From Planctomycetales bacterium (GTDB taxonomy: Bacteria; Planctomycetota; Planctomycetia; Isosphaerales; Isosphaeraceae): DNA of 64,000 nucleotides. Shown one piece after another: positions 6,015 to 61,084 of the stretch. Where the stretch lies: positions 8,253 through 72,252 of the forward strand of contig DAIDKV010000004.1 in NCBI GenBank assembly GCA_027449865.1, in the 5' to 3' direction. Each line of letters begins with the position of its first letter. The stretch's first letter is position 1. The notes under the pieces are model-generated. The model worked only from the letters and a program-made list of their open reading frames with translations. It did not search any database and had not been told where the DNA came from. The position numbers and the translations under genes were made by a program.

Positions 6015-6080
6015 GTGGGCTTGTTACCCGACTGGATGCTTCCTGTTACGGGTGCCTGTGTCGAACCGAGGAGATGTTCC

Positions 6081-6242: not shown

Positions 6243-6418
6243 TCCGACTGCCGGGCGACGAGGGCCGGTCCGACGGGCCGCGGGCCCGGCCGCCGAAGTT
6301 GAGCCCTCCCGCCGGCGGATGGAGACCTGATTTCGCTGACCCCTGCAGCCTCTTCGAGAGGATTTGGCCGACTCGTCTTGAGTCGGCTCGATCGTCCGAG
6401 TATGCTCTAGGGGTCGAG

Positions 6419-6491
6419 TCCCCGATAGCTCAATCGGTAGAGCGAGCGGCTGTTAACCGCTAGGTTCAAGGTTCGAGTCCTTGTCGGGGAG
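6419..6491 (+). tRNA. tRNA-Asn (anticodon GTT)
   Basis: Manual cloverleaf: acceptor TCCCCGA/TCGGGGA, D-arm GCTC..GAGC, anticodon stem AGCGG/CCGCT with loop CTGTTAA, T-arm CAAGG-TTCGAGT-CCTTG. 73 nt, no encoded CCA. Confidence 0.93.
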
Positions 6492-6506
6492 CCTAAGGTG
6501 AGAAAC

Positions 6507-6542
6507 GATGGGCCGTCCTGGAATCTTCCAGGGCGGCCCATC
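6507..6542. terminator. bidirectional intrinsic terminator between tRNA-Asn (+) and glgX (-)
   Basis: 16-bp stem GATGGGCCGTCCTGGA / TCCAGGGCGGCCCATC (one G.U pair) with loop ATCT. T-rich on the + side (GGCATTTGTGGGTTTCTT) and GTTTCTC on the - side. Confidence 0.6.
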
Positions 6543-6559
6543 GGCATTTGTGGGTTTCT

Positions 6560-8671: not shown

Positions 8672-8862
8672 CGGCTGAGCGCTCCCCGTCGTGGAGGACC
8701 CGGGCTCGTCTCGTCGCGTGCCCGGAGAGAGGTGTCCCGGATTCTCCGCCGATCGGCCATTGGAAACAATCACAATCCCGCGATATCCTGAATCAGCATG
8801 GAACGAACCCCGGCCTTGCCCGCCCTGGACCCAGACGACTCCAGCCACCAGGACCCCCCTCG

Positions 8863-11193
<2,331 letters not shown>

Positions 11194-11197
11194 TCGG

Positions 11198-12667: not shown

Positions 12668-12921
12668 TCGAGACCGGTCGAACGAACACGCGGAAGCCAA
12701 GGCAGCCACGTTCCACTCGCCGCGGGGGCGACCGATTCCACGCCGGTCGGAGCCACCGCGCCGGGGATCTCGTCCGACGGCAGCGGCGGCAGCGTCTCGC
12801 CCGTGGTCGACGGCACCGCCGAGCCCGTCGACGACGGGAGAGGTATCTCGAAGGTATCCGCCGTGTCCCCGCCCACAACCGGAGAGGCAACCCCCGACGA
12901 GGCGATCTTCCGCGACCGCCC

Positions 12922-13193
12922 AAACTTGATGTTCACGCCGGCCCAGAGCGTGTCGACCTGAGCGTCGAATTCGGGATCTGGAGAACCGGCCCCTCGATCG
13001 CGTTGCGGAACCCGTGCACCCACGACATCGAGAACGTGACGTCCTCGTTCAGGTCGTACGAGGCACCGAGAGATAACGTATTGGTGATGATCCCAGGTGC
13101 CTGGACGTTGAACAACGTCGCCTCATGGTGGATCGGGTTGGTGTTGTAAAGGGAAATGTGCCGGGCTTCGGAACGGGGAATACCTTCAAGCAC
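12922..13193 (-). pseudogene. possible N-terminally truncated, frame-disrupted beta-barrel outer-membrane protein fragment (FadL/TodX-like C-terminus)
   Basis: Alternating beta-strand pattern 'ATLFNVQAPGIITNTLSLGASYDLNEDVTFSMSWVHGF' in one frame. 'DAQVDTLWAGVNIKF' (OMP-like terminal strand ending in Phe) lies in a second frame. No signal peptide or N-terminal part is present. Confidence 0.3.
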
Positions 13194-13272
13194 ACCGGTC
13201 GGGGCGAGTACGACGTGATCCTCGACCTGGATAAGCTCCTGGGCTTCCTCGAACCATCAGGTTCCCGAAGAC

Positions 13273-13398
13273 CCCACCCCGCGCTGGAGGGCATGGGAAG
13301 CGAAACGGTTCGGAATCAAGATGTCGCCTCTTGTGCCGATGACCACGCAGAAGCGGGCCTCTACCTCGCCGATCTGGTACACTCCCAGAGAGCCGTGA
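13273..13398 (+). pseudogene. remnant of the 3' end of a DUF3604 paralogue
   Basis: Translates to 'PTPRWRAWEAKRFGIKMSPLVPMTTQKRASTSPIWYTPREP*'. This is collinear with the true C-terminus of the downstream gene, 'PTPRWTAYDALRFGVKMSPNVPMTTQERAYTSPIWYTPGEAR*' (15226-15354). There is no upstream ORF continuity. Confidence 0.6.
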
Positions 13399-13434
13399 GT
13401 CTTCACGACCCGACGCAGAACAAGGAACGACACC

Positions 13435-15354: not shown

Positions 15355-15362
15355 TCGTCCGC

Positions 15363-16229
15363 ATGTCGTTTCTCCGCCGGCTGCTTCGAGAACCGCTCTT
15401 GCACTTCGCCGCGATCGGAGCCTTGCTGTTCGCGGCCTACGCGATCATCCCGGGCCAGCGCACCTCGCCCGCGGAGATCGTCGTCACGCGCGGAAAGATC
15501 GACCAGCTCGCGTCCGGCTTCACCAAGATCTGGCAACGGCCGCCGACCGAATCCGAATTAAAGGGTCTGATCGACGACTGGGTACGCGAGGAGATCGCGG
15601 TGCGCGAGGCCACCGCGATGGGGCTCGACCGCGACGACACGGTCATCCGTCGGCGCCTCCGGCAGAAGCTCGAGTTCCTGTCCGACGATGTCGCCGCCGA
15701 GACCGCTCCCACCGACGACGATCTGAAAGCGTACCTTGCGGCCCATCCGGAGAAGTTCCGGGTGGAGCGTCGGTTCTCGTTCCACCAGATCTACCTGAAT
15801 CCTCAGCGCCACGAGCACGACCTGCCAACCCGGCTGGCCGCCGTCCAGCAGGCGTTGAACCGGCCCGTGACGGACGACGCGATCGAAGCCCTCGGCGACC
15901 CATCGCTCCTCGAACCCCGGTTCGAAAACCTGCGACGGAGCGAGGTCGAATCACAATTCGGTCCCACCTTCGCGTCCGCCCTCGAACGCCTTGCCCCTGG
16001 CAAGTGGGAGGGGCCCATCGAGTCGGGCTACGGCCTCCATTTCGTGCGTCTCGTCGAACGTGTGGAGGGACATGTCGCCGACCTGGCCGAGGTTCGCGAC
16101 GCCCTCCGGCGAGAGTGGGCGAACGACCGCCGGCTCAAAGCCCTTGAGTCGTTCTACGACGCAGCGCTGGAACGCTACACCGTCCAGATCGAGCCGCTTG
16201 CCCCGGCTTCCAGGGAGGCCCGGCGATGA
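15363..16229 (+). CDS. PpiC/parvulin-type peptidyl-prolyl isomerase (membrane-anchored, Rotamase_2-like)
   Basis: N-terminal TM 'LLHFAAIGALLFAAYAI' and C-terminal 'GKWEGPIESGYGLHFVRLVER'. An alternative GTG at 15351 overlaps the DUF3604 stop. Confidence 0.8.
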   Translation: MSFLRRLLREPLLHFAAIGALLFAAYAIIPGQRTSPAEIVVTRGKIDQLASGFTKIWQRPPTESELKGLIDDWVREEIAVREATAMGLDRDDTVIRRRLRQKLEFLSDDVAAETAPTDDDLKAYLAAHPEKFRVERRFSFHQIYLNPQRHEHDLPTRLAAVQQALNRPVTDDAIEALGDPSLLEPRFENLRRSEVESQFGPTFASALERLAPGKWEGPIESGYGLHFVRLVERVEGHVADLAEVRDALRREWANDRRLKALESFYDAALERYTVQIEPLAPASREARR

Positions 16230-17221
16230 ACCGCGCGCTGCTGACCATCCTCGTATGGCTCGTGACCGCGGCCAGCGTCGCGGCACACGAAATGCGCCCC
16301 GCCTACCTCGAACTGAAGCAAACGTCGGAATCGACCTACAGCGTTCTCTGGAAGGTGCCCGGCCGCGGCGAGGACCTTCGCCTCGCGCTCGACGTCGTGT
16401 TCCCTGACGGCACCACCAACGCCAGCGAGCACCGAGCCGTCATGCAGGGGGGTGCTTTTACCGAGCGCTGGACGATCCGACGCGAGGTCGGCCTGGACGG
16501 TGGCACGGTCCGCATCGCCGGGCTGAGCGAAACCATGACCGACGTCCTGGTCCGGCTGGAACGGCTCGACGGCACCACGCAGGTCTCGCGGCTTCTGCCG
16601 ACCTCTCCCTCGTTCATCGTGGAGCCCGCGCCCCGGGCGCTCGACGTGGCCGCCACCTACACAGCGCTCGGTGTCGAGCACATCCTCCAGGGCGTTGACC
16701 ACCTGCTGTTTGTCCTGGGGCTGCTCATCCTGACGCGCGGCGGCTGGAAACTGGTCAAGACGGTGACGGCCTTCACGATCTCGCACAGCCTGACGCTCAC
16801 AGCCGCGACGCTCGGCTGGGTCCACGTTCCGCCGCCGCCGGTGGAGGCCTGCATCGCGCTAAGTATCATGTTCGTCGCGGCCGAGATTTTACGGGTCCGC
16901 CAGGGCGAGGCGACGTTCACCTCCCGGAATCCCTGGCTCGTCGCGTTTGTCTTCGGCCTGATGCACGGGCTGGGCTTCGCGGGCGGGCTGAGCGAGGCCG
17001 GACTGCCCGAAAGTCACATTCCGGTGGCTCTTCTGTTCTTCAGCATGGGCGTGGAGACGGGCCACTTTCTGTTCATCGGTGCCGTACTCGCCGCGTGGTG
17101 GCTACTGCGCCGGTCACCGATCGCACCGCCACGGTGGGCGGATATCGTCCCGTCCTACGCCATCGGCGGCATCGCGGCGTTCTGGTTCCTCGACCGGACG
17201 ATTTCGTTTGTCGCTCCGTAG
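16226..17221 (+). CDS. HupE/UreJ-family membrane protein (HupE_UreJ_2-like)
   Basis: Signal peptide ending 'AAHEMRPAYLEL', a periplasmic beta-domain, then 'GVEHILQGVDHLLFVLGLLIL' plus about 5 further TM helices. ATGA overlap with the PPIase gene. Confidence 0.8.
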   Translation: MNRALLTILVWLVTAASVAAHEMRPAYLELKQTSESTYSVLWKVPGRGEDLRLALDVVFPDGTTNASEHRAVMQGGAFTERWTIRREVGLDGGTVRIAGLSETMTDVLVRLERLDGTTQVSRLLPTSPSFIVEPAPRALDVAATYTALGVEHILQGVDHLLFVLGLLILTRGGWKLVKTVTAFTISHSLTLTAATLGWVHVPPPPVEACIALSIMFVAAEILRVRQGEATFTSRNPWLVAFVFGLMHGLGFAGGLSEAGLPESHIPVALLFFSMGVETGHFLFIGAVLAAWWLLRRSPIAPPRWADIVPSYAIGGIAAFWFLDRTISFVAP

Positions 17222-47726: not shown

Positions 47727-49523
47727 TCACGACGGCGGCAGGACATATCCCAGCTTTCGGAGCCGGGCCCTGAGGGCTGACTCGTCCTCGGCCCGGAACA
47801 CGAGGCTCCGATCGCCGGCCCGCTGGCAAAGTTTGGCGAGCGGTCGGTCCGCGGCCAGGAGCTGGGCCGTCTCGGCATCAGCGCATTCGATCAGCCGGAC
47901 GGTCCCCAGGTCGCGGAGGCGACCAGACTGCTCCGAGAGGTCGGCCATCAAAACCTGCACCGGCTGGGGCAGGGGGCCCTGTCCGTTCTCGACCAGGAAC
48001 GCCTCCAGCTCGGCGGGAGCCATCCCGCGCTCGACCGCGGCGAGGATCTTCCCACGATCCAGTTTCCAGACCGAGTCAGACGTCCGCTCGGCCACGCGAT
48101 CGAGCATCAGCACGTCGGACGGGTCGGGAGGGCGTTGCAGGGCAACCACGTCCTGGTTCGGCAGGATGCGGAAGTGGGGTTCCGACGCCGAGGGCTCGGG
48201 ATGATATTCCTCGGCGAGGTCCAGGCACCAGGCGCCGAGGGGATTGAGCCGGAGGAATTTGAGGCCGTCGTAGCGGCTCAGGCAGCTCAGATCGTCCGCG
48301 CCCCATCGCGAGGAGAAATCGTCGCGGGCGTCGTGCGGCGGGATGTAGGCCACATCGATCAGGCCGAGCGTGGCGGCCGGCTCGAAGAGCATCGCCAGGA
48401 TGAACCGGCCCTGAAGCTGCTCCCAGGTATGCGGATCGTCGTAGCCGAGCGAGCCATACTGCGAATCGGAGATGTACAGATCCCAGTCATCGCGGCAGAC
48501 CTCGAACCGAAGCCCCATCGCCCGGATGTACCGGAAAAAATCGTCGACGCCGACCCATCGGCCAGGCGGACACCCGCGGAGCGCCTCGACAACCTTCTTC
48601 CGTCGCCCCGAGACCGCGGTAAGGCCGGCCTTACGCTGGCCCTTGATCGCGTCGACCCGGTGAAACTCGTCGAAGTCGGTCGTCGTGAGCCACCTCCGCC
48701 AGGCGATGCGCAGCACGACATGGGGCGGCTGGTTCAGGGCCTTGCGCCCGGCCTCGGTCAATTCGAGGATGTTCCGGGACGTCGCGGCGAGCCCCGCCGC
48801 CTGCACCAGCGCCGGCCAGGCGGCGGCCCGGATGGTCAAATCGTTCACGGGTTCGTCGCGATACTCGCGGGACACGGACGGATCGAAGAAATCCCCGTTG
48901 GTCAGCACGGAGCGAACCGCGTCGATCGTCTCTCCGATCGGCCGACGGGTCTTGTCACTGACCCGGACCCGGCCCGCCTCGATCAACCGGAGGACCGCAC
49001 GAAGCTCGCGTTCCGCGACCGGAGCCGTCGCGCGGATGCGGAGCGGAACTTCCTCTTCCTCGTGCGAGGACTCCGGCCCGAGGTCGATCGTCTCGGGTAG
49101 TTCGTCGATCGTGGCGATCGTAAAGGCCGGAGGCGGGGGGACGAAGGATTTGAGGATCGCTTGCACGTCGGTCGGGAGCTGCCAGTCTCTCGGCAGGAAG
49201 AGGGCCAGGGCCGTCGGGGTTTTTCTCACGCCGAACGATGGGGAACGGCCGTAGCTGGCCCGGAACCGCTCCAGGTCCAGCAGACCGGCCGGGGCGTGCG
49301 TCGCCTCCTGCACGGCCGACCGGTTCGTCTCGTCGAGCGCCTCATAGAGCCGTCGGACGTTCGCCTCGCGCGACATCGTGTCGGCCAGAAATGGGACGAG
49401 ATCTGTCTTGCGCGTCGGCGGATCGGCCGAGACGAGCCTGGAGAGAGGCCGGAGTTCATCGAGGGTCAGACGCTCGTAACTCGCAAGGGTTCCTAGCCGG
49501 GGAACGATCATGCTTCGAACCAT
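47727..49523 (-). CDS. large hypothetical protein (598 aa, soluble)
   Basis: Long ORF with balanced composition; the opposite-frame ORFs are Arg/Pro-rich. It weakly reminds me of helicase-associated (XPB-neighbour type) proteins, but no catalytic motif is seen. Confidence 0.65.
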   Translation of the reverse strand: MVRSMIVPRLGTLASYERLTLDELRPLSRLVSADPPTRKTDLVPFLADTMSREANVRRLYEALDETNRSAVQEATHAPAGLLDLERFRASYGRSPSFGVRKTPTALALFLPRDWQLPTDVQAILKSFVPPPPAFTIATIDELPETIDLGPESSHEEEEVPLRIRATAPVAERELRAVLRLIEAGRVRVSDKTRRPIGETIDAVRSVLTNGDFFDPSVSREYRDEPVNDLTIRAAAWPALVQAAGLAATSRNILELTEAGRKALNQPPHVVLRIAWRRWLTTTDFDEFHRVDAIKGQRKAGLTAVSGRRKKVVEALRGCPPGRWVGVDDFFRYIRAMGLRFEVCRDDWDLYISDSQYGSLGYDDPHTWEQLQGRFILAMLFEPAATLGLIDVAYIPPHDARDDFSSRWGADDLSCLSRYDGLKFLRLNPLGAWCLDLAEEYHPEPSASEPHFRILPNQDVVALQRPPDPSDVLMLDRVAERTSDSVWKLDRGKILAAVERGMAPAELEAFLVENGQGPLPQPVQVLMADLSEQSGRLRDLGTVRLIECADAETAQLLAADRPLAKLCQRAGDRSLVFRAEDESALRARLRKLGYVLPPS

Positions 49524-49881: not shown

Positions 49882-50985
49882 TCACAGCAGGTTAACGATC
49901 CGATCAGCGAGCCCCTTCTCGCCGAGGACAACGCTGAGCTTGCCGTTACCGGCAACCTTCTCCAGGACCTCCAGCTCCCGGAGCCGCATCAAAACCGGGT
50001 TCTCGGCGAGCAGCTTCGCCGTGTTCGCCTGGCTCCGAAGCGCCGCGGTCTCCTCACGACGAGTGACCAGGTTGGCCTCGGCGGCCTTGCGAGCCTCGGT
50101 TACGCGGTTCATCAGCTCCTTCATGTCGCCCGGCAGAATGATGTCGCGGACGCCCGCCGAGAGCACCTCCATCCCGAGCGCAAGCGACCGAGGGCCAAGT
50201 AGCTCCTCGACCTCGCGTGCCACGACCTCCTTGTCGGCGAGCAGGGCATCCAGCTCGCGAGCCCCGACCACGGCCCGGAGCGCAAGCTGAGCCTCTCGGT
50301 AGAGGGCCTGTCGGGCGTCGTCAGCCGCGTCGAGGGCGCGTCGAGGATCGACGATCCGGTAGTTGACGATCGCATTGAGCCGGAGCGTCACCTTGTCGGC
50401 CGTCATCACGTCCTGGCCGCTGACATCCAGCGACGCCTCCCGCAGATCCACCTCCACGACCTTCGCCTCGGCCTCGCCCCTCCAGAAAGCGTAAATCCCA
50501 GGCGCGAGCGTCTCGGTATACCGGCCGTCGAGGAACAACACACCCGCGCAGCCGCGGTTGACCGTGCAGATGTCGAGCATCGCCGAGACCGACGACCGCG
50601 CGATGGCGCGCAGGTCCTCGTGCTCGAACCGCGACCGACGAGCGTCGACGACCTCGACGCGAACGTCCCTCGGCTCGGTCCAGTAAGCGTACAGCCCCGG
50701 GGGCAAGATCGCGGCGAACCGGCCGTCGATCCAGACCAGCCCCCGCTGATCATCCTTCAAATCGACCACCAGCGCGAGCCCCTTCAGCGCCCCCGAGGCG
50801 ACGATCAAATCGAGCTTCTCGTGAGCGAGCCGAGGCGCCCGTCGCGAGACGACCTCCACCGAGACCTGCCCGAGCGGGTCAAGGAACCAGTGCGTCCCCT
50901 CGCCGAGCAGGCCGACGAACTCGCCATCGCGGAAGTGGAGGCCGACCTCGTAGCTCTGGATCCGGTAGTTTTTCATCGGGTACAT
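49882..50985 (-). CDS. SPFH/band-7 (slipin-like) protein with a triplicated N-terminal module
   Basis: C-terminal half 'TADKVTLRLNAIVNYRIVDP...GMEVLSAGVRDIILP...EA+KAAEANL' is the SPFH core plus coiled coil. The start is set at MYPMKNY, with GGAGG 8 nt upstream; the track ORF extends to 51297. Confidence 0.8.
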   Translation of the reverse strand: MYPMKNYRIQSYEVGLHFRDGEFVGLLGEGTHWFLDPLGQVSVEVVSRRAPRLAHEKLDLIVASGALKGLALVVDLKDDQRGLVWIDGRFAAILPPGLYAYWTEPRDVRVEVVDARRSRFEHEDLRAIARSSVSAMLDICTVNRGCAGVLFLDGRYTETLAPGIYAFWRGEAEAKVVEVDLREASLDVSGQDVMTADKVTLRLNAIVNYRIVDPRRALDAADDARQALYREAQLALRAVVGARELDALLADKEVVAREVEELLGPRSLALGMEVLSAGVRDIILPGDMKELMNRVTEARKAAEANLVTRREETAALRSQANTAKLLAENPVLMRLRELEVLEKVAGNGKLSVVLGEKGLADRIVNLL

Positions 50986-51345
50986 CGATCGCCCTCCTCG
51001 CCCCGGGCCTCGACCGCGGGGCCTTTTCTCAACGCTTCGTGATCGCTCAGAGTGAAGGGCCGTCGGGAGCCGGCGCGTCCGCCGGTCACAGTCGGTTATG
51101 CGGGGTGGCGCCCCGATCGAAACGGCCGCCGGTCCCGTGCCGCCCCGGCAGGACAGGCCCATAGGAGACGGGCTCCGACCTGCGTCGACGGCGGTGATCC
51201 GACGGCGCGCGACGTCGGGAATCGCGCACCACAGGGCCAACCTTCCTGCTGCCGACGTCCGACCCCGGAAACCCAGGGCCGATCGTCGGCCGACCAAGCG
51301 GACGTCCGACCCCCTCGGGCCGGCTGTTGGAGACCTTTTCAGGGT

Positions 51346-51418
51346 CTAGGTGGACGGGAGTCGAACCCGCGACACCCGGGTTTGGAGCCCGGTGCTCTAT
51401 CCGCTGAGCTACCAAAGA
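51346..51418 (-). tRNA. tRNA-Trp(CCA)-like gene with a non-pairing acceptor stem (possible pseudo-tRNA)
   Basis: On the minus strand: D-arm GCTC-AGCGGATA-GAGC, anticodon stem CCGGG/CCCGG with loop CTCCAAA, T-arm GCGGG-TTCGACT-CCCGT. The acceptor strands are TCTTTGG / CCACCTA, so pairs 2:71, 3:70 and 4:69 are pyrimidine-pyrimidine mismatches. Confidence 0.6.
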
Positions 51419-51563
51419 CGGAGGCCGCGGGGTTTCGAATCCCTGCACGGGACACGACGGGCCGATCGCCGACCGGCGAGGCCGTCGCGCCGCGGGCCGC
51501 CGCATGCCTCTCGTCGGAAGGATGGAGACCGTACCCGCCCCTGATGTTCGCGCGAAAAAACCG

Positions 51564-51943
51564 ATTCACCACAGAGCCACAGCGCGGCCGAGCCGCCTCC
51601 CATCAGAATGAATTCACCACAGAGCCACAGAGAGCACAGAGAAAAATCTTCGTAGAATACATTGCGTGAAAAAGTGGCTCTGTTATTTATAGTGATGAGA
51701 TTGTACTCGGCGTACAAGATTCTCAAGTTTAGTAGTGCAGAGATTTAATTTTGCTGGGATTTCTCTGTGTCTCTGTGGTTAACTCTTGTCCGACGCCTTT
51801 CCTCAGGTCGTCACAGATGTTCGATCTTCCTGGGATTTCTCTGTGTCTCTGTGTCTCTGTGGTAAATTCTTGTCCGGCGCCTTTCCTCAGGTCCTCACAG
51901 ATGTTCGATCTTGCTGGGATTTCTCTGTGTCTCTGTGGTAAAT
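51564..51943. repeat. repeat family 2 (CACAGAG-rich): two left copies, an AT-rich core, then 2.4 tandem inverted copies of a 76-84-bp unit
   Basis: ATTCACCACAGAGCCACAG occurs at 51564 and 51612. Inverted units starting CTGGGATTTCTCTGTGTCTCTGTGGT lie at 51754-51829, 51830-51913 (with an extra CTGTGTCT) and 51914-51943 (partial). The AT-rich segment is 51651-51753. Confidence 0.8.
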
Positions 51944-52045
51944 CGTCCGGGATTTCTTCGCATTCGGCCCGCACGCCTGCTAGGATGACCGGGCCTGCGT
52001 GCGATGGCTCGTGAGACGATGCGGGGCAGGGGGGGGATGTTATCC

Positions 52046-54970
52046 ATGTCGGCGGCGGTCTGGAGTACCGATCAGGTCCTGGCGCTGGCGCCCGACGCCT
52101 CCTCGGCGAAGTCGGGGAAGGACCTCGGCACGCCGCGGAAGTGGGTCCGACTCGGCCAGGCCGAGGGCGTGATCTGGGGCGAATGTCAGGGGAGCGGATC
52201 GACTCCTTACAGGGTCCAGGTTGAGCTTTCCGAGCCGGCCTTTCACTGCTCGTGCCCGAGCCGAAAATTCCCCTGCAAGCACGGCCTGGGTCTCCTCCTG
52301 ATCTGGGCCGGACAATCCTCGGCGCTTTCCCAGGGAGACCCGCCGACGTGGGTCTCCGAGTGGCTCGAAGGCCGCGCCCAACGAGCCGAGAAGAAGGCCG
52401 CGAAAGATCAGGCGAAGCAGGAAAAAAGCGAGCGCGGCGAGCCGGCCATCGATCGGGTCGCGAAGCAGAAGCGGGAATCCGCGCGACGGATCAAGGTCGT
52501 TGACGGCCTTGACGAGCTGGCCCGATGGCTCTCCGACCTCGTCCGTCAGGGTCTTGCCGGCGTCTCCGACCGCCCGCCCAGCTTCTGGGACGACCGCGCC
52601 CGCCGCCTGATCGACGCCCAGGCTCCCGGCGTGGCTCGCCGGGTGAGACAGCTTGCCGACCTTCCGACCACCGGCGAGGGCTGGCAAGGCGCCCTGCTCG
52701 ATCGGCTTGCCCGTCTTCATCTGATGATCGAGGCGCATCGACGGATCGACTCCCTCCCGCCCGATGTCCAGGCCGATCTGCGCGCCGCCGTCGGCTACCC
52801 GATCGATCTGGACGAGGTCCGCGCTGGTCCCGGATTTCGCGACCACTGGCAGGTCGTCGGCCAGCGGACAGAGCGTGAGGAGATGCTGCGCGTTCGTCGG
52901 ACCTGGCTCGTCGGCCGCACCACCGGCCAGCCCGCGCTCCTGCTCGACTTCTCCCACGTGAGGCAGCCGATCGCCGAGGTCTCCATCCCGCCCGGGGCCG
53001 AGATCGATGCGGATTTGTCGTTCTTCTCGAGCGCCTTCCCGCTCCGGGCACTGGTGAAGGCCCGACACGGGGCACCATCGGCGATCGCCGAGATCGGCGG
53101 ATTCTCCCGGATCGCCGACGCCCTGGCCGCCCACGCCGGTGCGATCGCAAAGAACCCCTGGCTGGAAACCTTCCCGATCGTCCTCCTGGGCGTCGTCCCG
53201 GTGTTTCGCGACGAGCAATGGATCGTCCGCGATGCCGAGTGCCGCGCGCTGCCGATCTCTCCGAGGTTCGAGGGCGGATGGAGCCTGCTCGCGGCCTCCG
53301 GCGGTCGGCCAATCTCGATCGCCGGCGAATATGATGGCGCGTGTTTCTTACCGCTCTCGACCGTGATCGATGGCCGGTTCCGGGCGATCGTCGGACCCGA
53401 GGCCGAGGCGCGGGCGACCGCCTTGCCATCCCCCGAGGGACCGCCCGAGATCGCCCGGGCCTGGCAGCAGGCGTCGGCCGTGGCGATGGTCGGCGTCGCG
53501 CGGAAGCCGGCCGCGATCGAGTTGCCCGACGGACCGATCGGTCCCGCGTTGCAGAAGATCCAGGGACAGGAGCCGACGGCGGCCCTGCTGGGTTCCTCGG
53601 CCCTTTTGACACTTTACGCCCGCGCCGGGCAGAGACCACCCACGGACGACGGCCCGATCCCCGATCCAGCCCCCAGGGATCACCGCCCCGAATGCCGGCC
53701 CGAGGCCGCGAACCGACTCCGCTCGATGATCGGCGGGCCCTACGTCGCGATGATCGAGGAATGGCTCGACCTGCTGGCCGAATCGGGGTGCCGGCTGCCC
53801 GACGATTTGCTTGTCGACCTGATCGATCTCGGGCGCCGCGAATCCGTCTATCGTCCGATGCTCCAAAAAGTCGTCAGCGCACGGGGCCGATGGCTCTCGG
53901 CACAGAACCCGACCGCGTGGGGCTACCTCGGCGGCGAGGCCGGGCGGGACCCCGAAGAGGTCTGGCAGACCGGGGCGAAGAAGGAGCGGCTGGTCGCCCT
54001 CCGGGAACTCCGGGCGAGCGATCCCGCGAAGGCCCGCCATCTGATCGCCACAACCTGGTCGACCGAGCCCGCCGACGGCCGCGCCGCGATCGTCGAGGCG
54101 CTCGGCGAGGGGCTCCAGCCCGAAGACGAGCCGTTCCTGGAATCGGCGCTCGACGACCGGGCGAAGACGGTCCGGCGCGCCGCCGCCGAGCTGCTCCCGC
54201 GGCTGACCGGCTCCCGGCTCTCGGCGCGGATGGCCGAGCGGGCGCGGGCCTGCGTCCGGTGGAGCGACCAGGGCCTCATCGTCGACCCGCCGAAGGCGTC
54301 CGACGCCGCGATGGTCCGCGACGGCGTCGAGCCGAAGCCGCCGGTCGGCACGGGCGAGCGGGCCTGGTGGCTCCGCCAGATCATCGCCGCGGCGCCGCTG
54401 TCGACATGGGCGACTACTGACCTCCCGACCCCCGATCGCCTGATCGCATCCCTTCGTTCGAACCCGTGGGGACAGGACCTCTGGATTTCCTTGTCCCGCC
54501 CCGTCGTCCGCGAGCGAGACGGAGACTGGGCTGAGGCCCTCCTGCGGAACCTGCCCGGGGAGGAATATGGACTCCCCGGCCTCATCCGGGGGCTTCTCCA
54601 ATCCATGGGCCCCGACCGTCGCGACGCGATGATCCTCGAATCCCTCCGCGTCGAGGACCGCGTCTTCCGGCCCGGCAGCCCGACCTTCCACCTGCTGTAC
54701 ATGATCCAGGCACCGATCGGCGAGGAGCTGGCCCGCGAGGTGCTTCGACACATCCGCGAGGAGATCGCGGCCGACGGCGGGGAGTCGAAGTACGACCGGT
54801 TCTTCTGGGCTTACCTCAACGCGCTGGGGAGTCGGGTCCCGCCCCATCTGGCGAGCGAGGTCGAGGGTGTCTCGCCCTCCGGCGATCTCGGCCACCTCGT
54901 CCAGTACTTCCATCAGTTCGTCAGCACGCTTCAGCAACGCCGCGAGATGCACCAGGAGCTCGCCCGATGA
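52046..54970 (+). CDS. SWIM zinc-finger protein fused to a long helical-repeat region (YehQ/DUF5691-like)
   Basis: 'VLALAPDASSAKSGKDL', 'WGECQGSGSTPYRVQV', SWIM 'FHCSCPSRKFPCKHGLGLL' (CxC..CxH), followed by about 850 aa of Leu/Ala/Arg-rich helical sequence. The ATG at 52046 is preceded by a G-run RBS; the longest ORF starts at 52004. Confidence 0.8.
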   Translation: MSAAVWSTDQVLALAPDASSAKSGKDLGTPRKWVRLGQAEGVIWGECQGSGSTPYRVQVELSEPAFHCSCPSRKFPCKHGLGLLLIWAGQSSALSQGDPPTWVSEWLEGRAQRAEKKAAKDQAKQEKSERGEPAIDRVAKQKRESARRIKVVDGLDELARWLSDLVRQGLAGVSDRPPSFWDDRARRLIDAQAPGVARRVRQLADLPTTGEGWQGALLDRLARLHLMIEAHRRIDSLPPDVQADLRAAVGYPIDLDEVRAGPGFRDHWQVVGQRTEREEMLRVRRTWLVGRTTGQPALLLDFSHVRQPIAEVSIPPGAEIDADLSFFSSAFPLRALVKARHGAPSAIAEIGGFSRIADALAAHAGAIAKNPWLETFPIVLLGVVPVFRDEQWIVRDAECRALPISPRFEGGWSLLAASGGRPISIAGEYDGACFLPLSTVIDGRFRAIVGPEAEARATALPSPEGPPEIARAWQQASAVAMVGVARKPAAIELPDGPIGPALQKIQGQEPTAALLGSSALLTLYARAGQRPPTDDGPIPDPAPRDHRPECRPEAANRLRSMIGGPYVAMIEEWLDLLAESGCRLPDDLLVDLIDLGRRESVYRPMLQKVVSARGRWLSAQNPTAWGYLGGEAGRDPEEVWQTGAKKERLVALRELRASDPAKARHLIATTWSTEPADGRAAIVEALGEGLQPEDEPFLESALDDRAKTVRRAAAELLPRLTGSRLSARMAERARACVRWSDQGLIVDPPKASDAAMVRDGVEPKPPVGTGERAWWLRQIIAAAPLSTWATTDLPTPDRLIASLRSNPWGQDLWISLSRPVVRERDGDWAEALLRNLPGEEYGLPGLIRGLLQSMGPDRRDAMILESLRVEDRVFRPGSPTFHLLYMIQAPIGEELAREVLRHIREEIAADGGESKYDRFFWAYLNALGSRVPPHLASEVEGVSPSGDLGHLVQYFHQFVSTLQQRREMHQELAR

Positions 54971-56124
54971 GCAAGGCCGTCGGCAAGACAAAGTCGCCTC
55001 CCGCCAAATCGACGGCCGCCGTCCAGGCCGCCTCCGAGGACGCCGCCGTCACCGTCCTCCGTCGACACGCCGAGGAGCAGTTCGCCGAGGAACTCTCGGC
55101 GTTCCGGAAGGCCGACGACCGCCCGCGACCGCCCCAATGGCAGCTCTCACCGTGGGCCGTCTCGACCTACCTCCTCGGCGGCAAGCTGCCGGACGGGTTC
55201 GTCGTCTCGCCCAAGTACATCGGCAACCGACGATTGATCGAGATCGCCGTCTCGACGCTCGCGACCGACCGCGCCCTGCTCCTGCTCGGGGTGCCGGGAA
55301 CGGCCAAGAGCTGGGTCTCGGAGCACCTGGCCGCGGCGATCTCGGGCGACTCGACCCGGCTGGTGCAGGGGACCGCCGGCACCAGCGAGGAGGCCATCCG
55401 ATACGGATGGAACTACGCCCTCCTGCTGGCGAAGGGCCCGTCGATGGAGGCGCTCGTCCCGAGCCCGCTCATGCGGGCGATGAAGGACGGTCAAATCGCC
55501 CGGATCGAGGAATTGACCCGCATCCCGGCCGACGTCCAGGACACGCTCATCACGATTCTCTCCGAGAAGACCCTCCCGATCCCCGAGCTGAACGCCCAGC
55601 TCCAGGCAACGAAGGGCTTCAACGTGATCGCCACCGCGAACAACCGCGACAAGGGCGTCAACGACCTGTCGAGCGCGCTGAAGCGGCGGTTCAACACGGT
55701 CGTCCTGCCGCCGCCGTCCACCGCCGAGGAGGAAGTGGATATCGTCCGAATTCGGGTCGAGGCCCTGGGGCGTGCGCTGGAGTTGCCGGCCGAGCCGCCG
55801 GGGCTGGAGGAGATCCGTCGGGTCGTCACCGTCTTCCGCGAACTGCGCGACGGCCAGACCGCCGACGGCAAGACGAAGGTCAAGCAGCCGAGCGGGACCA
55901 TGAGCACCGGCGAGGCGATCTCGGTCGTGAACCAGGGGCTTGCCCTGGCGGCGCATTTTGGCGACGGCGTTTTGCGTGCTGGGGACGTCGCCTCGGGACT
56001 CGTCGGCGCCGTCGTGAAGGACCCGGTGCAGGATCGGGTCGTCTGGCTCGAATACCTCGAAGCCGTGGTGAAGGAACGCGACGGCTGGAAGGACCTCTAC
56101 CGCGCCTGTCGCGAGGTGAGCTGA
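54967..56124 (+). CDS. MoxR-type AAA+ ATPase (AAA_5, YehL-like)
   Basis: Walker A 'GVPGTAKS', Walker B-like 'IARIEELTR', sensor-1 'VIATANN', 'LSSALKRRF'. ATGA overlap with the SWIM gene. Confidence 0.88.
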   Translation: MSKAVGKTKSPPAKSTAAVQAASEDAAVTVLRRHAEEQFAEELSAFRKADDRPRPPQWQLSPWAVSTYLLGGKLPDGFVVSPKYIGNRRLIEIAVSTLATDRALLLLGVPGTAKSWVSEHLAAAISGDSTRLVQGTAGTSEEAIRYGWNYALLLAKGPSMEALVPSPLMRAMKDGQIARIEELTRIPADVQDTLITILSEKTLPIPELNAQLQATKGFNVIATANNRDKGVNDLSSALKRRFNTVVLPPPSTAEEEVDIVRIRVEALGRALELPAEPPGLEEIRRVVTVFRELRDGQTADGKTKVKQPSGTMSTGEAISVVNQGLALAAHFGDGVLRAGDVASGLVGAVVKDPVQDRVVWLEYLEAVVKERDGWKDLYRACREVS

Positions 56125-56154
56125 AACGGGAACGCTGCTCGCCCGGGTGGTCTC

Positions 56155-56227
56155 TTGCAGGAGCCGGCTCCAGCCGGCGATCTTCGAAAGATCGAGAGCC
56201 GATCGAACTCGCCTCGAAGATCGCCGG
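56155..56227. repeat. family-1 palindromic element copy in the moxR-downstream spacer
   Basis: TTGCAGGAGCCGGCTCCAGCCGGCGATCTTCG is the reverse complement of the 33.1-33.4 kb core with one substitution. CCGGCGATCTTCGA (56174-56187) and TCGAAGATCGCCGG (56214-56227) form a perfect 14-bp inverted repeat. Confidence 0.7.
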
Positions 56228-56253
56228 AAAATCCCGGAGGACTCGTCGTGGAC

Positions 56254-56910
56254 ATGGCCCCCAGCTTCTCGACCTCGGGACTCGCGCCGATCGGAATCCT
56301 CCTGATTGTGCTGCTGGCCCTGTTCGTGGCGGCCGTGGTCCTGGGGGCCCGCAGCCTGCTCCTGCTCGTCGTCCGACGGCCCGGCGACCGGAGGCGCGGG
56401 CTCCGTCTCGCGCTCATGGCCACCGGGCTAAGCGTCCTGGCCGAGGCGTGGAGCTTCCTGCTCCACCATATTCCCTACTCCCCGCATCCGGGCTTCTCGA
56501 ATTATCTGCTCGTCGTCCCGCTCCAGATCAGCCTCTGCGCGGTGATCTTCTGGGGGCTGGCCGGGAGCCGGCGAATCTCCGCCACGGGCCGGCTGGTGCT
56601 CGCGGTCCTGGCGATTGGTTTCCCGATGGGTGCCGTCCGAGGAATCCATCGGTGGGAGCGCAAGCAGTGGTTGCTGGCGGGGGCCGAGACCTGGGCGAAG
56701 CACGTGAGCGAGGGAGAGGCGAGTGCCGCCGGCTGGGCGGAGCGGGCGCGCGACGAAACGGGGGACTCCGCCCAGGTCTCGCGCGAGTTCGCGAATCGGG
56801 ATCGACTCTGGGCGCGATACAGTGCCGAGATGGCCCGGGCGTTCCGATGGGCCGCGGATCATCCGGAGGAGCCGTTGCCGGATGTCCCCGAGCCCGACTG
56901 GCGGCGATGA
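56254..56910 (+). CDS. 4-TM membrane protein, paralogue A (no family recognised)
   Basis: 218 aa with GGAGGA 12 nt upstream. TM segments 'IGILLIVLLALFVAAVVLG', 'LRLALMATGLSVLAEAWSFLL', 'LLVVPLQISLCAVIFWGLAG', 'LVLAVLAIGFPMGAV'. C-terminal soluble tail ends 'FRWAADHPEEPLP'. Confidence 0.7.
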   Translation: MAPSFSTSGLAPIGILLIVLLALFVAAVVLGARSLLLLVVRRPGDRRRGLRLALMATGLSVLAEAWSFLLHHIPYSPHPGFSNYLLVVPLQISLCAVIFWGLAGSRRISATGRLVLAVLAIGFPMGAVRGIHRWERKQWLLAGAETWAKHVSEGEASAAGWAERARDETGDSAQVSREFANRDRLWARYSAEMARAFRWAADHPEEPLPDVPEPDWRR

Positions 56911-56967
56911 ACGGAGAGTCTTGAGAACTCCGGCAAAATTGGGCCGCGGAATCCAGGAGGTCCCATC

Positions 56968-57576
56968 ATGATGGGCGTGCCCGACTTCGAGCTGCTGTTG
57001 GCAGGCCTCTTCATCGTGCTCTTGCAGTTAGTCTTTCTCACCGTCGCAATGCTCCTGGGATGCTGGAGCTTGTTCCTGCTCCTCCGCCGCTCCGCCGCCC
57101 CAAGGCGCGGGTTTCGGCTGGCCCTCATCGCCGTCATCCTCAGCGCCGTGGTTGAGACGTGGATCTACCTGTTCTTCACCCCGTGGCGATTCCTCAACGT
57201 CCGGCCCCTGCTGTTTTTGCCGCTCCCCTCACTTCAGGTCGGGCTCTGCGGGGTCGTCTTCTGGGGACTGGCCGGGAGCCAGCGGATCTCGGGCACGGGC
57301 CGGATGGCGATCGCGGTCCTGGCCATCGGTCTCGCGATGGGGGCCGTAATGGCGATTCGACGCCAGGATCAAAGGCGGGAGATGCTGTACTGGGCCGAAG
57401 CCAACGCGAAGGAGGCGCGCAGCTTCGAGGAGGCTTCGCGGGATTCGCATGGCATGGCGGATTACTTCCTCTGCCACGCGCGCAACCGCAAGGCCCTGTC
57501 GGAGGCCTACCGATGGGCCGCAGACCATCCCGGAGAGCCCGTGCCACGTGTCTCCTCGCCCGACTGCGGGTTCTGA
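56968..57576 (+). CDS. 4-TM membrane protein, paralogue B
   Basis: 202 aa, collinear with paralogue A ('RRGFRLALIAVILSAVVETW', 'LQVGLCGVVFWGLAGSQRISGTGRMAIAVLAIGLAMGAV', 'YRWAADHPGEPVP'). GGAGG RBS. Confidence 0.7.
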   Translation: MMGVPDFELLLAGLFIVLLQLVFLTVAMLLGCWSLFLLLRRSAAPRRGFRLALIAVILSAVVETWIYLFFTPWRFLNVRPLLFLPLPSLQVGLCGVVFWGLAGSQRISGTGRMAIAVLAIGLAMGAVMAIRRQDQRREMLYWAEANAKEARSFEEASRDSHGMADYFLCHARNRKALSEAYRWAADHPGEPVPRVSSPDCGF

Positions 57577-57586
57577 GCCGAAAACC

Positions 57587-59890
57587 ATGAAAACGGCAAA
57601 TCCCACCTCGATCCACGTCCTCGGCGTCCGTCATCACGGGCCGGGCTCGGCACGCAGCGTTGCCGCTGCGCTCGAAGCCATCGCGCCCGAGGTCGTCCTC
57701 ATCGAGGGCCCTCCCGATGCCAACGACCTCATCGCGCTCGCCGGGCTCAACGGGATGGAACCACCCGTCGCCCTCCTGATCTATCGACCCGAGGAGCCGA
57801 AGCAGGCCGTCTATTACCCGTTCGCCCTCTTCTCGCCCGAGTGGCAGGCGATCCAGTTCGCACTCGCGAAAAAGCTCGCGGTCCGGTTCATGGATCTCCC
57901 GATGAAACATCAACTCGGGATCGCATCTGACGAGGATGAGCCTGCGGAGGTGAAGCCGAATCCCGAGCCCGGCGCGAACGGTGAGGACGAACCGATCTCG
58001 CCGAAGCTCGCGAGACAGCTTCGGATCGACCCCTTGCAGGTGCTCGCCGAGGCGGCCGGCTTCGGCGAGGGCGAACGGTGGTGGGAGCACGTCGTCGAGC
58101 ACCGCCGCGACGGCGCCGACCTCTTCGCCGCGATCCTCGAAGCGATGGCCGAGGTGCGCGCCTCGGTCCCGCCGGTCGAGGACCGCCGAGAACTCCGCCG
58201 CGAGGCCCACATGAGGCGGACGATCCGCGCCGCCCGCGCCGAGGGCTTCCGCCGGATCGCCGTTGTCTGCGGCGCCTGGCACGCGCCGGCGCTCGCCGAG
58301 GACCGATGGCCGCCCGCCTCCAAGGACGACGCCCTCCTCAAAGAAATGCCAACGGCGAAGGTTGCCGCGACCTGGGTTCCCTGGACCCACGGCCGGCTCG
58401 GCTCCGAGAGTGGCTACGGCGCCGGGGTCGAGTCGCCGGGCTGGTATCACCACCTCTGGACCTGCTCCGGACAGGTCGCCGAACGCTGGATGACCCGCGT
58501 GGCCCGCCTGCTTCGTGACGAGGGGCTCGATGCCTCACCCGCCTCGGCGATCGAGGCCGTTCGCCTGGCCGAGGCGCTCGCCGCGCTCCGCGATCGCCAC
58601 CTGCCCGGCCTGGAAGAGCTGACCGAGGCCGCACGCGCCATCTTTTGCTTCGGCGACGACATTCCCATGCGGCTGATCCGTCGGAAGCTGATCGTCGGCG
58701 AAGCGCTGGGGCGCGTTCCCGAGGAGACGCCGACGGTCCCGCTGGTCCGCGACCTCGAACGGCTCCAGAAGTCGCTCCGCCTCAAGCCCGACCCCGAGCC
58801 AAGGCCCCTCGAACTGGATCTACGCAACGAGACCGATTTGCAGCGGAGCCGGTTGCTGCATCGGCTCGGGATGATCGGCGTGCCCTGGGGCTCCATCGAA
58901 CGCACAACCGGCCGCGGAACGTTCAAGGAAGCGTGGAAGCTCCAGTGGCGGCCCGAGCTGGCCGTGGCGCTGATCGAGGCCAGCCTCTGGGGGTCAACGG
59001 TGCTCGACGCCGCGACCGCCCGCGCCGACGACCTCGCCGCGAGGGCGCCCGATCTGCCCGCGCTGACGTCCCTCCTCGATCGTGCCATGCTCGCGGATCT
59101 CCCGGCCTCGGTCGAGCGGATCATGGCCCGTCTGGAGGAACGCGCCGCACTCTCCAGCGACGCGGTCCAGCTTCTCAACGCGCTACCGCCGCTGGCAAGC
59201 CTGCTCCGGTACGGCAACGTCCGCAAGACCGACGCCGAGGCCGTCGCCCACGCGACCAACGGGATCGTCGCGCGGGCCTGCATCGGGCTCCCAGGCGCCT
59301 GCGCCTCGCTCGACGACGAGGCCGCCGCCGCGATGTTCGAGGCGATTCACAGCGCCAACGACGCCATCGTCCTGATCGAAAATCCCGAACACCTGAAGAT
59401 GTGGCAGGCCACGCTCGCGAAGCTGACAGGCTCCGACCGACTGCACGGGCTGGTCGCGGGGCGATGCGTCCGGCTCCTGCTCGACGGAGGCACATTCGAC
59501 GCCGAGGAGACGGCCCGGCGGATGAACCTCGCCGTCTCGAAGGCCGCCGACCCTCCTCGCGCCGCCGCCTGGATCGACGGCTTCCTCCGAGGGAGCGGCG
59601 AACTTCTCTATCACGACGACGGTCTCTTCGCGATCCTCGACGGCTGGCTCGCCTCGGTCCCGGCCGACGCCTTCACCGAACTCCTGCCGATGCTCCGTCG
59701 GACGTTCTCAACCTTCGAGGCCCCGCTGCGCAGGAACCTCGGCGAGAAGGCGCGGCGGGGCGTGAAGGCGGGCGCTGCGTCGCCCGCCCGAAAGCCAGCC
59801 GCGCCCGTCGACTTCGACGAGGATCGGGCCGCGACAGTCCTCCCGCTGCTCTCGGCGATGCTCGGCCTCGACACCCCGGAGGCTTCCTGA
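57587..59890 (+). CDS. DUF5682/YehM-like large protein
   Basis: 767 aa. N-terminal 'IHVLGVRHHGPGSARSV...VLIEGPPD', then 'YYPFALFSPEWQAI' and 'VVCGAWHAPAL'. Size and position next to the vWA gene match the YehM-type component. Confidence 0.78.
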   Translation: MKTANPTSIHVLGVRHHGPGSARSVAAALEAIAPEVVLIEGPPDANDLIALAGLNGMEPPVALLIYRPEEPKQAVYYPFALFSPEWQAIQFALAKKLAVRFMDLPMKHQLGIASDEDEPAEVKPNPEPGANGEDEPISPKLARQLRIDPLQVLAEAAGFGEGERWWEHVVEHRRDGADLFAAILEAMAEVRASVPPVEDRRELRREAHMRRTIRAARAEGFRRIAVVCGAWHAPALAEDRWPPASKDDALLKEMPTAKVAATWVPWTHGRLGSESGYGAGVESPGWYHHLWTCSGQVAERWMTRVARLLRDEGLDASPASAIEAVRLAEALAALRDRHLPGLEELTEAARAIFCFGDDIPMRLIRRKLIVGEALGRVPEETPTVPLVRDLERLQKSLRLKPDPEPRPLELDLRNETDLQRSRLLHRLGMIGVPWGSIERTTGRGTFKEAWKLQWRPELAVALIEASLWGSTVLDAATARADDLAARAPDLPALTSLLDRAMLADLPASVERIMARLEERAALSSDAVQLLNALPPLASLLRYGNVRKTDAEAVAHATNGIVARACIGLPGACASLDDEAAAAMFEAIHSANDAIVLIENPEHLKMWQATLAKLTGSDRLHGLVAGRCVRLLLDGGTFDAEETARRMNLAVSKAADPPRAAAWIDGFLRGSGELLYHDDGLFAILDGWLASVPADAFTELLPMLRRTFSTFEAPLRRNLGEKARRGVKAGAASPARKPAAPVDFDEDRAATVLPLLSAMLGLDTPEAS

Positions 59891-61084
59891 ATGGCTCCCC
59901 GCACCGACGACGAACGGCTCCGACGATGGCGGCTCGTCCTGGGCGGCGATGCCGACGGCACCGGCGCGGGGCTTCAGGGAGACGACGCCAACATCGACGC
60001 CGCGCTGGCGCAGCTCTATAACCCCGGCGGCGGAGGAGGAGGCGGCGGCGGCAAGGGACGTCGGGGCGGGCTCGGCGGCTCGGCGCCCAACGTGGCGCGA
60101 TGGCTCGGCGACATCCGGAAGTATTTCCCGCGCCCGGTCGTCCAGCTTCTTCAGAAAGACGCCATCGAGCGGCTCGACCTCCGCGCCATGCTCGCCCAGC
60201 CCGAACTGCTCGAGGCCGTCGAGCCCGACATCCACCTCGTCGCCAATCTCCTCTCGCTCAGGCAGGCCCTCCCTGGCGAAAGCCTGGAGACGGCCCGACT
60301 GGTCGTCCGAAAAGTGGTCGAGGAGCTGGAACGCAAACTGGCGAGCCCGATGCGGCAGGCCGTGATGGGGAGCCTCAACCGGGCGGTCCGCAACCGACGC
60401 CCACGCCACAACGAGATCGACTGGAACCGGACCATCCGCGCCAACCTCCGACACTTCCAGCCCGACTACCAGACGATCATCCCCGAGGTCCGGATCGGCT
60501 ACGGCCGAAAGCGTCAGGCGTTACGCGAGATCGTCCTCTGCGTGGATCAGAGCGGATCGATGGCAAGCTCCGTCGTCTACGCCGGAATCTTCGGCGCCGT
60601 GCTGGCGAGCCTGCCGGCGGTGAAGACGAGCATCGTCGTCTTCGATACGGCGGTCGTCGACCTGACGGCCGAGTTGCACGATCCGGTCGAGCTACTCTTT
60701 GGCACTCAGCTCGGCGGCGGGACCGACATCCACCGCGCCCTCACCTACTGCCAGGGACTCATCCGACAGCCGGGCGAGACCATTCTCGTGCTGATCAGCG
60801 ACCTGTTCGAGGGGGGCGATCGCGAGGGGATGTTTCGCGTGCTGGGATCGCTGGCATCCTCAGGCGTACAGGTGATTGGTTTGCTGGCGCTCAATGATGA
60901 AGGCGCGCCGTGTTATGATCACGAGCACGCCCGACGGATGGCGGCCCTTCAAATGCCGGTCTTCGCCTGCACGCCGGATCTCTTCCCCGACCTGATGGCC
61001 GCCGCGATTTCTCGGCAGGATCTCAGGCAATGGGCCGCCGCGCACGATGTGGTCGCCGCTCGCGGAATTGAGGCCGGACCCTGA
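59891..61084 (+). CDS. vWA domain protein (CoxE/YehP-like, MIDAS-containing)
   Basis: 'RWRLVLGG' N-terminus, Gly-run linker, MIDAS 'LCVDQSGSM', 'GGGTDI', 'ILVLISDLFEGG'. Its ATG abuts the upstream TGA. Confidence 0.88.
   Translation: MAPRTDDERLRRWRLVLGGDADGTGAGLQGDDANIDAALAQLYNPGGGGGGGGGKGRRGGLGGSAPNVARWLGDIRKYFPRPVVQLLQKDAIERLDLRAMLAQPELLEAVEPDIHLVANLLSLRQALPGESLETARLVVRKVVEELERKLASPMRQAVMGSLNRAVRNRRPRHNEIDWNRTIRANLRHFQPDYQTIIPEVRIGYGRKRQALREIVLCVDQSGSMASSVVYAGIFGAVLASLPAVKTSIVVFDTAVVDLTAELHDPVELLFGTQLGGGTDIHRALTYCQGLIRQPGETILVLISDLFEGGDREGMFRVLGSLASSGVQVIGLLALNDEGAPCYDHEHARRMAALQMPVFACTPDLFPDLMAAAISRQDLRQWAAAHDVVAARGIEAGP

Follow-up and report, generated by a model that had tools for sequence, protein, structure and literature searches.

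A widespread five-protein MoxR/vWA cassette with an apparently incidental insertion of two membrane genes in a Planctomycetales bacterium

The 64,000-nucleotide (nt) stretch analysed here (hereafter the window; Planctomycetales bacterium, assembly GCA_027449865.1, contig DAIDKV010000004.1, positions 8,253 to 72,252 of the forward strand) harbors an operon encoding a fused SWIM-DUF5691 protein, a YehL-type MoxR AAA+ ATPase, two membrane proteins designated TM1 and TM2, a DUF5682 protein and a CoxE-type vWA protein (Table 1). The locus is an intact, ordinary member of a widespread, self-contained five-protein cassette. With some reserve, it is best read as a MoxR/vWA remodelling cassette that carries TM1 and TM2 as an incidental insertion.

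Distribution and gene order of the cassette

Homologues of the DUF5682 protein were numerous, at least 7999 being recovered at E <= 1e-10, and the nearest named ones belonged to Isosphaeraceae. Scanning one genome for each species uncovered more than 592 loci, of which 80 were kept and had their components mapped with tblastn. These 80 loci were distributed over more than 10 phyla (Cyanobacteriota, Chloroflexota, Acidobacteriota, Planctomycetota, Bacteroidota, Actinomycetota, Myxococcota, Pseudomonadota, Verrucomicrobiota and Deinococcota); a Clostridia metagenome-assembled genome (MAG) and a Mailhella MAG were the further sources. Their majority order was SWIM, DUF5691, AAA, DUF5682, vWA. The AAA gene was located upstream of DUF5682 in 68 of the 72 loci with room for it and the vWA gene downstream of DUF5682 in 67 out of 73, the exceptions being mostly cyanobacterial.

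NCBI annotation of plasmids pRSpK102d of Rhizobium sp. K102 and pOB3b3 of Methylosinus trichosporium OB3b shows these five families again, identically ordered and oriented and separated by short gaps. The window differs from these plasmid cassettes by the fusion of SWIM to DUF5691 and by the TM1/TM2 insert, which was unique among the loci examined. Co-conservation of the gene neighbourhood was strong across the sampled phyla. An earlier interpretation made from the letters alone (the sequence-only reading) had considered the operon rearranged since its SWIM gene comes first; as indicated by the 80 loci and by the Rhizobium and Methylosinus annotations, SWIM-first is the standard order and it is E. 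coli that displays the divergent variant.

Conservation was unequal among the components. Orthologues of the ATPase in other phyla were 68-82% identical to the window protein (median 74%), while median identities over the loci amounted to 61% for the vWA protein, 50% for DUF5682 and 40% for SWIM. DUF5691 sequences were only 17-36% identical to that of the window in an alignment of 26 sequences (column identity 29% on average). Compared with the motor, both SWIM and DUF5691 are evolving much more rapidly. The window displayed all attributes of the cassette, namely a DUF5682 protein of ~760 amino acids (aa), an AAA_5 gene on its 5' side, a vWA gene with a MIDAS (adhesion site dependent on a metal ion) on its 3' side, and SWIM and DUF5691 before the ATPase; its AAA and DUF5682 genes were separated by the 1.46-kb TM1/TM2 insert.

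Two further observations concern individual loci. In L002, the nearest relative of the window that was found, the SWIM-DUF5691, AAA and vWA genes were each split into two frames or fragments (5779-13482) and insertion sequence (IS) elements were found downstream; the copy is either decaying or affected by indel errors of the assembly. A large DUF4132 (YehI-like) gene directly followed the vWA gene in six Bacteroidota loci (L058, L059, L062, L072, L074 and L081, ~13400-16450) and was located upstream of yehL in E. coli (L001 4280-7912), while none was present in the window. The DUF4132 protein may be a facultative sixth component.

Organization of the operon

The six co-directional open reading frames (ORFs) are tightly packed on the + strand and span positions 52004-61084 (Table 1). 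An ATGA overlap (54967-54970) joins the SWIM-DUF5691 stop to the AAA start and a TGA-ATG abutment (59888-59893) joins DUF5682 to the vWA gene; the other intergenic gaps measured 30-129, 57 and 10 nt, and no + strand terminator-like site was detected inside the operon. The sole sigma-70-like site of the region (51666-51693, +) was found within the lower-GC (guanine plus cytosine) patch 5' of the operon, which is a probable promoter or regulatory region. The packing and coupling signatures described in the sequence-only reading were confirmed, and every motif it had quoted was retrieved: the SWIM motif FHCSCPSRKFPCKHGLG in the 988-aa protein, GVPGTAKS, ATANN and ALKRRF in the ATPase, the start motif HVLGVRHHGPGSA in the 767-aa DUF5682 protein and DQSGSM in the vWA protein. 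Its family assignments likewise held, with Pfam matches far beyond chance.

Table 1. Features of the operon and its 5' context (window coordinates), and genes inserted at the AAA-DUF5682 junction of other loci (coordinates of the respective locus)
Feature	Coordinates	Strand	Remarks
SWIM+DUF5691 fused protein	52004-54970	+	988 aa; Pfam; SWIM finger 52208-52300, DUF5691 (HEAT-like) 53477-54961
YehL-type MoxR AAA+ ATPase	54967-56124	+	385 aa; AAA_5 domain 55276-55692
TM1, orphan membrane protein with four transmembrane segments (4-TM)	56254-56910	+	start uncertain: TTG 56155, GTG 56248 or ATG 56254
TM2, 4-TM paralogue of TM1	56968-57576	+	202 aa
DUF5682 (YehM-type) protein	57587-59890	+	767 aa; Pfam
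CoxE-type vWA (YehP-type) protein	59891-61084	+	397 aa; VWA_CoxE domain 60350-60985
tRNA-Trp(CCA)-like remnant	51351-51414	-	Rfam RF00005; context, outside operon
Lower-GC, repeat-rich intergenic patch, 5' of operon	51560-51945		repeats, sigma-70-like site
Junction insert, L008	9313-9891
Junction insert, L013	9137-9715
Junction insert, L034	9486-9953
Junction insert, L032	7234-9307
Junction insert, L033	8775-9446
Junction insert, L037	4079-4801

The ATPase and the vWA protein

The AAA_5 domain of the ATPase was recognised by Pfam with an E-value of 4.9e-38. Besides the Walker A sequence GVPGTAKS, the protein displayed a Walker B-like IEE, the sensor-1 sequence ATANN and the arginine motif ALKRRF. 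Its nearest PDB sequences were Midasin AAA modules and NorQ; the bpMoxR Pfam match (23.7 bits) remained below its 27-bit cutoff, and for the ATPase NCBIfam gave only matches far below cutoff, including the GvpN and MadB equivalogs. Judging from its motifs, the protein appears to be a member of the MoxR AAA+ group, with predicted ATP hydrolysis and a predicted hexameric state.

The vWA protein matched VWA_CoxE (Pfam E 5.4e-53) and displayed a complete MIDAS (DQSGS, GGGT and SD). Nine consecutive glycines and then KGRRGGLGGS occur in its N-terminal part (residues ~44-63, 60020-60080), of which E. coli YehP retains just the GGLGGS core; the glycine run thus expands a conserved motif with low-complexity sequence.

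The SWIM-DUF5691 protein

Both domains were identified in the same 988-aa ORF, DUF5691 with a Pfam E-value of 3.8e-129 and SWIM with 1e-4 (score 22.2 bits, the cutoff being 19.6). They are usually encoded by two genes of ~440 and ~500 aa, which were separate in 57 out of 60 loci. The three loci with a fusion belonged to a Planctomycetota MAG, a Chloroflexia MAG and the actinomycete Phytohabitans; the fusion was also present in L002 and in L003 (1005 aa), the relatives of the window. It is a sporadic minority form. The fusion noticed in the sequence-only reading is real but, as the Chloroflexia and actinomycete examples show, not confined to planctomycetes.

Programmed readthrough from SWIM into DUF5691 was considered and rejected, as split genes lay in the same frame in 12 of the 57 loci, no more than expected by chance. 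Profile searches retrieved no PDB sequence relatives of the SWIM protein, of DUF5691 or of DUF5682. Against PADLOC, the fused protein gave only a marginal HEAT-repeat match (E 0.0016).

The DUF5682 protein

The full-length Pfam profile (PF18934) was matched with an E-value of 3.8e-278. AlphaFold2 modelling of the full-length protein with 40 homologues (pLDDT, the predicted local confidence, 78.6) suggested two parts: a predicted alpha/beta N-domain with two disordered insertions (residues ~8-265, 57608-58381) and a predicted all-helical repeat domain (residues ~297-760, 58475-59866). The invariant columns of a 25-sequence alignment including E. coli YehM clustered in the N-domain, at G13, R15, H16, H17, E40-G41-P42 and C228-G229-x-x-H232-x-P234.

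Foldseek comparison of the full model with PDB returned generic helical-repeat or solenoid matches only (E >= 8e-3). A separate model of the N-domain (pLDDT 75.1) gave weak matches to 2rad and 2qgm (E 0.5-1.5), which we take to be EreA-like proteins, and to Sts-1/PGM (E 0.5-3), with TM-scores of at most 0.34. For a histidine-phosphatase identity, which the RHG-like motif brings to mind, the comparison with GpmA gave no match.

Comparison with E. coli yehLMPQ and with other MoxR-vWA systems

Homology between the window and the E. coli yehLMPQ cluster was clear for three components: YehL was 40% identical to the ATPase (BLASTP E 2e-79), YehM 29% identical to DUF5682 (E 1e-43) and YehP 38% identical to the vWA protein (E 9e-81). 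In contrast, YehQ did not match the SWIM-DUF5691 protein significantly (BLASTP E 0.8), and a profile of 26 SWIM proteins aligned with its first ~80 residues only, those carrying the finger (hhalign E 0.023). No counterpart of DUF5691 was detectable in YehQ or in YehI (DUF4132). Beyond the finger, the window SWIM protein and YehQ are thus only analogous. The claim that the window holds the same four components as yehLMPQ therefore stands for YehL, YehM and YehP and, for YehQ, extends to the SWIM finger only.

The arrangement of the two clusters was likewise partly shared. The three yehLMP genes stand side by side and follow the relative order seen in the window, with a SWIM-finger gene in the same cluster; YehM keeps the RHH, EGP and CGxWHxP motifs and YehP the DQSGS of its MIDAS. 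However, in E. coli the SWIM gene comes last, DUF5691 is missing, and WGR and DUF4132 genes lie upstream, neither of which is present in the window. Strictly taken, the window possesses orthologues of YehL, YehM and YehP but neither a YehQ-type protein nor the L-M-P-Q order. YehL constitutes a subfamily of MoxR ATPases in the classification of Snider and Houry, as that classification is cited in PMC3893208. Out of the 5426 complete E. coli genomes, 5210 carried the yehLMPQ cluster (L001 8597-14945) at a coverage of at least 80%, single-copy and chromosomal, so that it is nearly core in this species; 934 E. coli genomes were just 90-95% identical to it at the DNA level.

The systems CoxD-CoxE-CoxF, NorQ-NorD, CbbQ-CbbO, RavA-ViaA, Midasin and CobS-CobT-CobN share the logic of a motor combined with a MIDAS adaptor, and the large third subunit of the cassette parallels CobN and CoxF in theirs. 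The likeness is nevertheless established for the MoxR and vWA domains only: these MoxR/AAA_5-vWA systems possess nothing that corresponds to DUF5682, DUF5691 or the SWIM protein and, unlike those of CoxDEF, NorQD or CbbQO type, the cassette has no adjacent client.

Proposed function and alternatives

In the remodelling cassette favored here, the AAA_5 protein would form a ring motor and the vWA protein would couple it to a partner via the intact MIDAS site. DUF5682 would be the working subunit, displaying an R-H-H/E/C..H pocket, metal-binding or hydrolytic, on a helical solenoid. The fast-evolving SWIM-DUF5691 protein, with its HEAT-like part, could serve as scaffold or target-recognition subunit, and the target would be encoded elsewhere in the genome. 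Midasin, NorQ-NorD, CoxD-CoxE-CoxF (PMC4240915) and the CobS-CobT-CobN chelatase are the mechanistic analogues; what we infer is the assembly of a ring, the coupling through the MIDAS, the part played by DUF5682 and a target encoded in trans.

Several results weigh against this reading. The DUF5682 N-domain matched no known fold significantly, its best Foldseek E-value being 0.028. To probe a TraB/Tiki/ChaN/EreA-like identity, it was compared by hhalign with the TraB-family protein YbaP, alone and as a profile, without a significant score (E 0.17-0.3; profile E 0.17); the YbaP profile was shallow, its search having given close enterobacterial sequences only; the alignment pairs GxRHH...EGP with GSIHMG...VEAD, the GxxH and E motifs of TraB, and a Pfam match to TraB was found in one of 40 DUF5682 members (E 0.08). 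The literature searched on DUF5682 and DUF5691, by Pfam accession and by yeh gene name, yielded incidental mentions only and no functional assignment, in line with the sequence-only reading, which had called the system uncharacterised. Finally, the TM genes are intact, possess ribosome-binding sites and display the same GC content at third codon positions (GC3) as the operon, so that a local functional link is possible.

A broader proposal, which we hold to be rather unlikely, is that the cassette is an unrecognised, near-universal ATP-driven machine, in which the MoxR-vWA pair would gate a new enzymatic or metal-binding fold in the DUF5682 N-domain and act on a conserved cellular target, protein or nucleic acid, via SWIM and HEAT. 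It would explain a motor identity of 68-82% across more than 10 phyla, the near-core status in E. coli and the unlinked client.

A serious rival, although one to which we give only a minor share of our confidence, is an NTP-dependent conflict or anti-phage system in which MoxR-vWA would set a threshold, SWIM-DUF5691 would be the sensor of an invader and the DUF5682 N-domain the effector. MoxR-vWA pairs form the core of several predicted conflict systems described by Kaur et al. (PMC7159879), which likewise combine this core with extra components and helical-repeat scaffolds and, like the cassette, are abundant in planctomycetes, actinobacteria, cyanobacteria and myxobacteria. However, SWIM and YehL are unmentioned in that 2020 study, and the defining third components (VMAP, iSTAND, FtsH or beta-propeller) and effector domains were absent here according to Pfam. 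The phyletic distribution of the cassette is patchy and favors large-genome, developmentally complex bacteria, and the flanks are non-syntenic among close relatives. Copies exist on megaplasmids, the Methylosinus cassette having IS elements, a recombinase and a VapC/Phd pair on its flanks, but plasmid copies were mostly found on large non-mobilizable replicons and the cassette was essentially absent from phage records. The faster evolution of SWIM and DUF5691 would suit a conflict system; the conservation of the ATPase across phyla would not. Similarly, yehL and yehM of E. coli are silenced by H-NS/StpA (PMC3686432), yet the single-copy chromosomal cluster of this species is unlike typical variable defence islands. 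PADLOC gave no specific match for any of the six window proteins, the marginal HEAT-repeat match excepted. Applied to the 104 nearest flanking ORFs, it returned one methyltransferase and generic ABC matches; therefore, no defence-island signal emanates from the immediate neighbours.

A dedicated metal-centre or cofactor insertion module serving one enzyme, as CoxDEF serves Mo-Cu CO dehydrogenase, NorQD NO reductase and CbbQO Rubisco, appears more doubtful still. The CoxE type of the vWA protein and the NorQ match of the ATPase in PDB point in this direction, as do the invariant residues of DUF5682 (His, His, Glu, Cys and His), which are typical metal ligands, and the RHG-type motif carried by CoxF in the CoxDEF model (PMC4240915). 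Nonetheless, the likeness of RHH to histidine phosphatases was not significant, and the GvpN and MadB equivalogs scored far below their cutoffs. Moreover, no conserved client enzyme adjoined the cassette in the window or in ~55 loci: the 104 nearest flanking ORFs displayed 116 Pfam families, of which only DUF4132 recurred, in the six Bacteroidota loci mentioned above. Flanks this heterogeneous imply that there is no client gene in cis.

Whichever function applies, the family is a real blank spot given its homologue count, its spread over more than 10 phyla and its position in E. coli. Three of the four core families are without a solved structure in PDB, and no functional paper was encountered in the literature searched. 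As a fixed, self-contained five-gene unit without defence signature and with a conserved R-H-H/E/C..H pocket in DUF5682, the cassette offers concrete starting points for mutagenesis in an amenable host, for example E. coli. The planctomycete copy itself adds little: what sets it apart is a fusion that occurs sporadically and an insertion that seems incidental, rather than a planctomycete elaboration.

The TM1/TM2 insertion

TM1 and TM2 are paralogues (43% identical, E 2e-38), each with four hydrophobic segments and a conserved C-terminal YRWAADHP motif. Their genes are preceded by Shine-Dalgarno sites (GGAGG at 56236-56240 for TM1, AGGAGG at 56955-56960 for TM2). No match to either protein was obtained in Pfam, NCBIfam, PADLOC or PHROG. 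Both genes were missing from L002 and L003, in which the AAA gene is directly followed by DUF5682 (78% and 63% identical to that of the window, respectively), and from all 80 other loci. The family was tiny, being represented by four proteins in a word-indexed search (5.8 billion), by one locus in a metagenome scan and by 19 representatives in an exhaustive hidden Markov model scan of 1.84 billion proteins. The four other readable contexts of TM homologues were all located away from the cassette, at least one of them with planctomycete-typical families.

The AAA-DUF5682 junction was occupied elsewhere by unrelated genes, including Uma2, 23S_rRNA_IVP, an esterase with a cyclase, and unknown ORFs (Table 1), and seems to tolerate insertions. 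Insertion scars at TM1/TM2 were not recognisable, the spacers being not alignable with those of L002 or L003. Because the two genes are absent in relatives, belong to a tiny family found elsewhere and occupy a permissive junction, they apparently represent a recent, lineage-specific and incidental insertion of an orphan planctomycete gene duplicated in tandem. Co-transcription with the operon is probable, but the two are not conserved subunits.

That TM1 and TM2 are instead acquired, dedicated membrane subunits, anchoring the machine or providing a membrane client, is very improbable: their position inside the operon, co-directional and with short gaps, good Shine-Dalgarno sites and no + strand terminator-like site, the selection suggested by two intact paralogues sharing YRWAADHP at 43% identity, and the membrane-bound state of some MoxR-vWA systems such as CoxD and CoxE (PMC4240915) are outweighed by their absence from L002, L003 and the 80 loci, by homologues lying outside any MoxR cassette in four out of four other contexts and by the unrelated genes at the same junction in other lineages. 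The planctomycete-specific membrane additions of the sequence-only reading could not be maintained for the same reasons.

The context of one homologue is worth recording. In L004 (10001-13889), TM homologue P0124 was followed by a series of small ORFs together with genes for an HNH protein and a toxin-antitoxin pair of the ParE type, an indication that mobile-element-like regions can harbor the orphan membrane gene.

Genomic context of the operon

The damaged tRNA-like gene and the repeat-rich, AT-rich patch reported 5' of the operon are both real. The former reached 49.8 bits in Rfam over model positions 5-66 of 71, with anticodon CCA; it lacks the outer four acceptor-stem pairs and hence a complete cloverleaf with a 7-bp acceptor stem, and ARAGORN made no call for it. 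The element is possibly what remains of an integration site. Within the patch, an 84-nt unit occurs twice in tandem (51762-51845 and 51846-51929, 94% identical), and the 17-mer ACCACAGAGNCACAGAG is present six times in an arrangement of inverted repeats, with 0.02 occurrences expected at random; this 17-mer was found in none of 91 fetched loci. The patch could represent a regulatory array or, alternatively, what is left of a small mobile element.

The flanks of the window encode Helicase_C_3, Band_7, Diphthami_syn_2 and 5-oxoprolinase-type proteins, and these genes were not shared with L002 or L003. The cassette is thus located at different sites in related genomes, yet it is not foreign in composition, GC and GC3 of the six operon genes being equal to those of the flanks. 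The island context put forward earlier is only weakly supported, non-syntenic flanks, tRNA remnant and repeats speaking for it and the matching composition against it.

Two neighbours on the - strand, both upstream of the operon, were noted in passing. A Band_7/SPFH protein (49882-51297) displayed an N-terminal extension of ~240 aa without Pfam match, and a 597-aa protein (47727-49523) carried Helicase_C_3 as its only domain.

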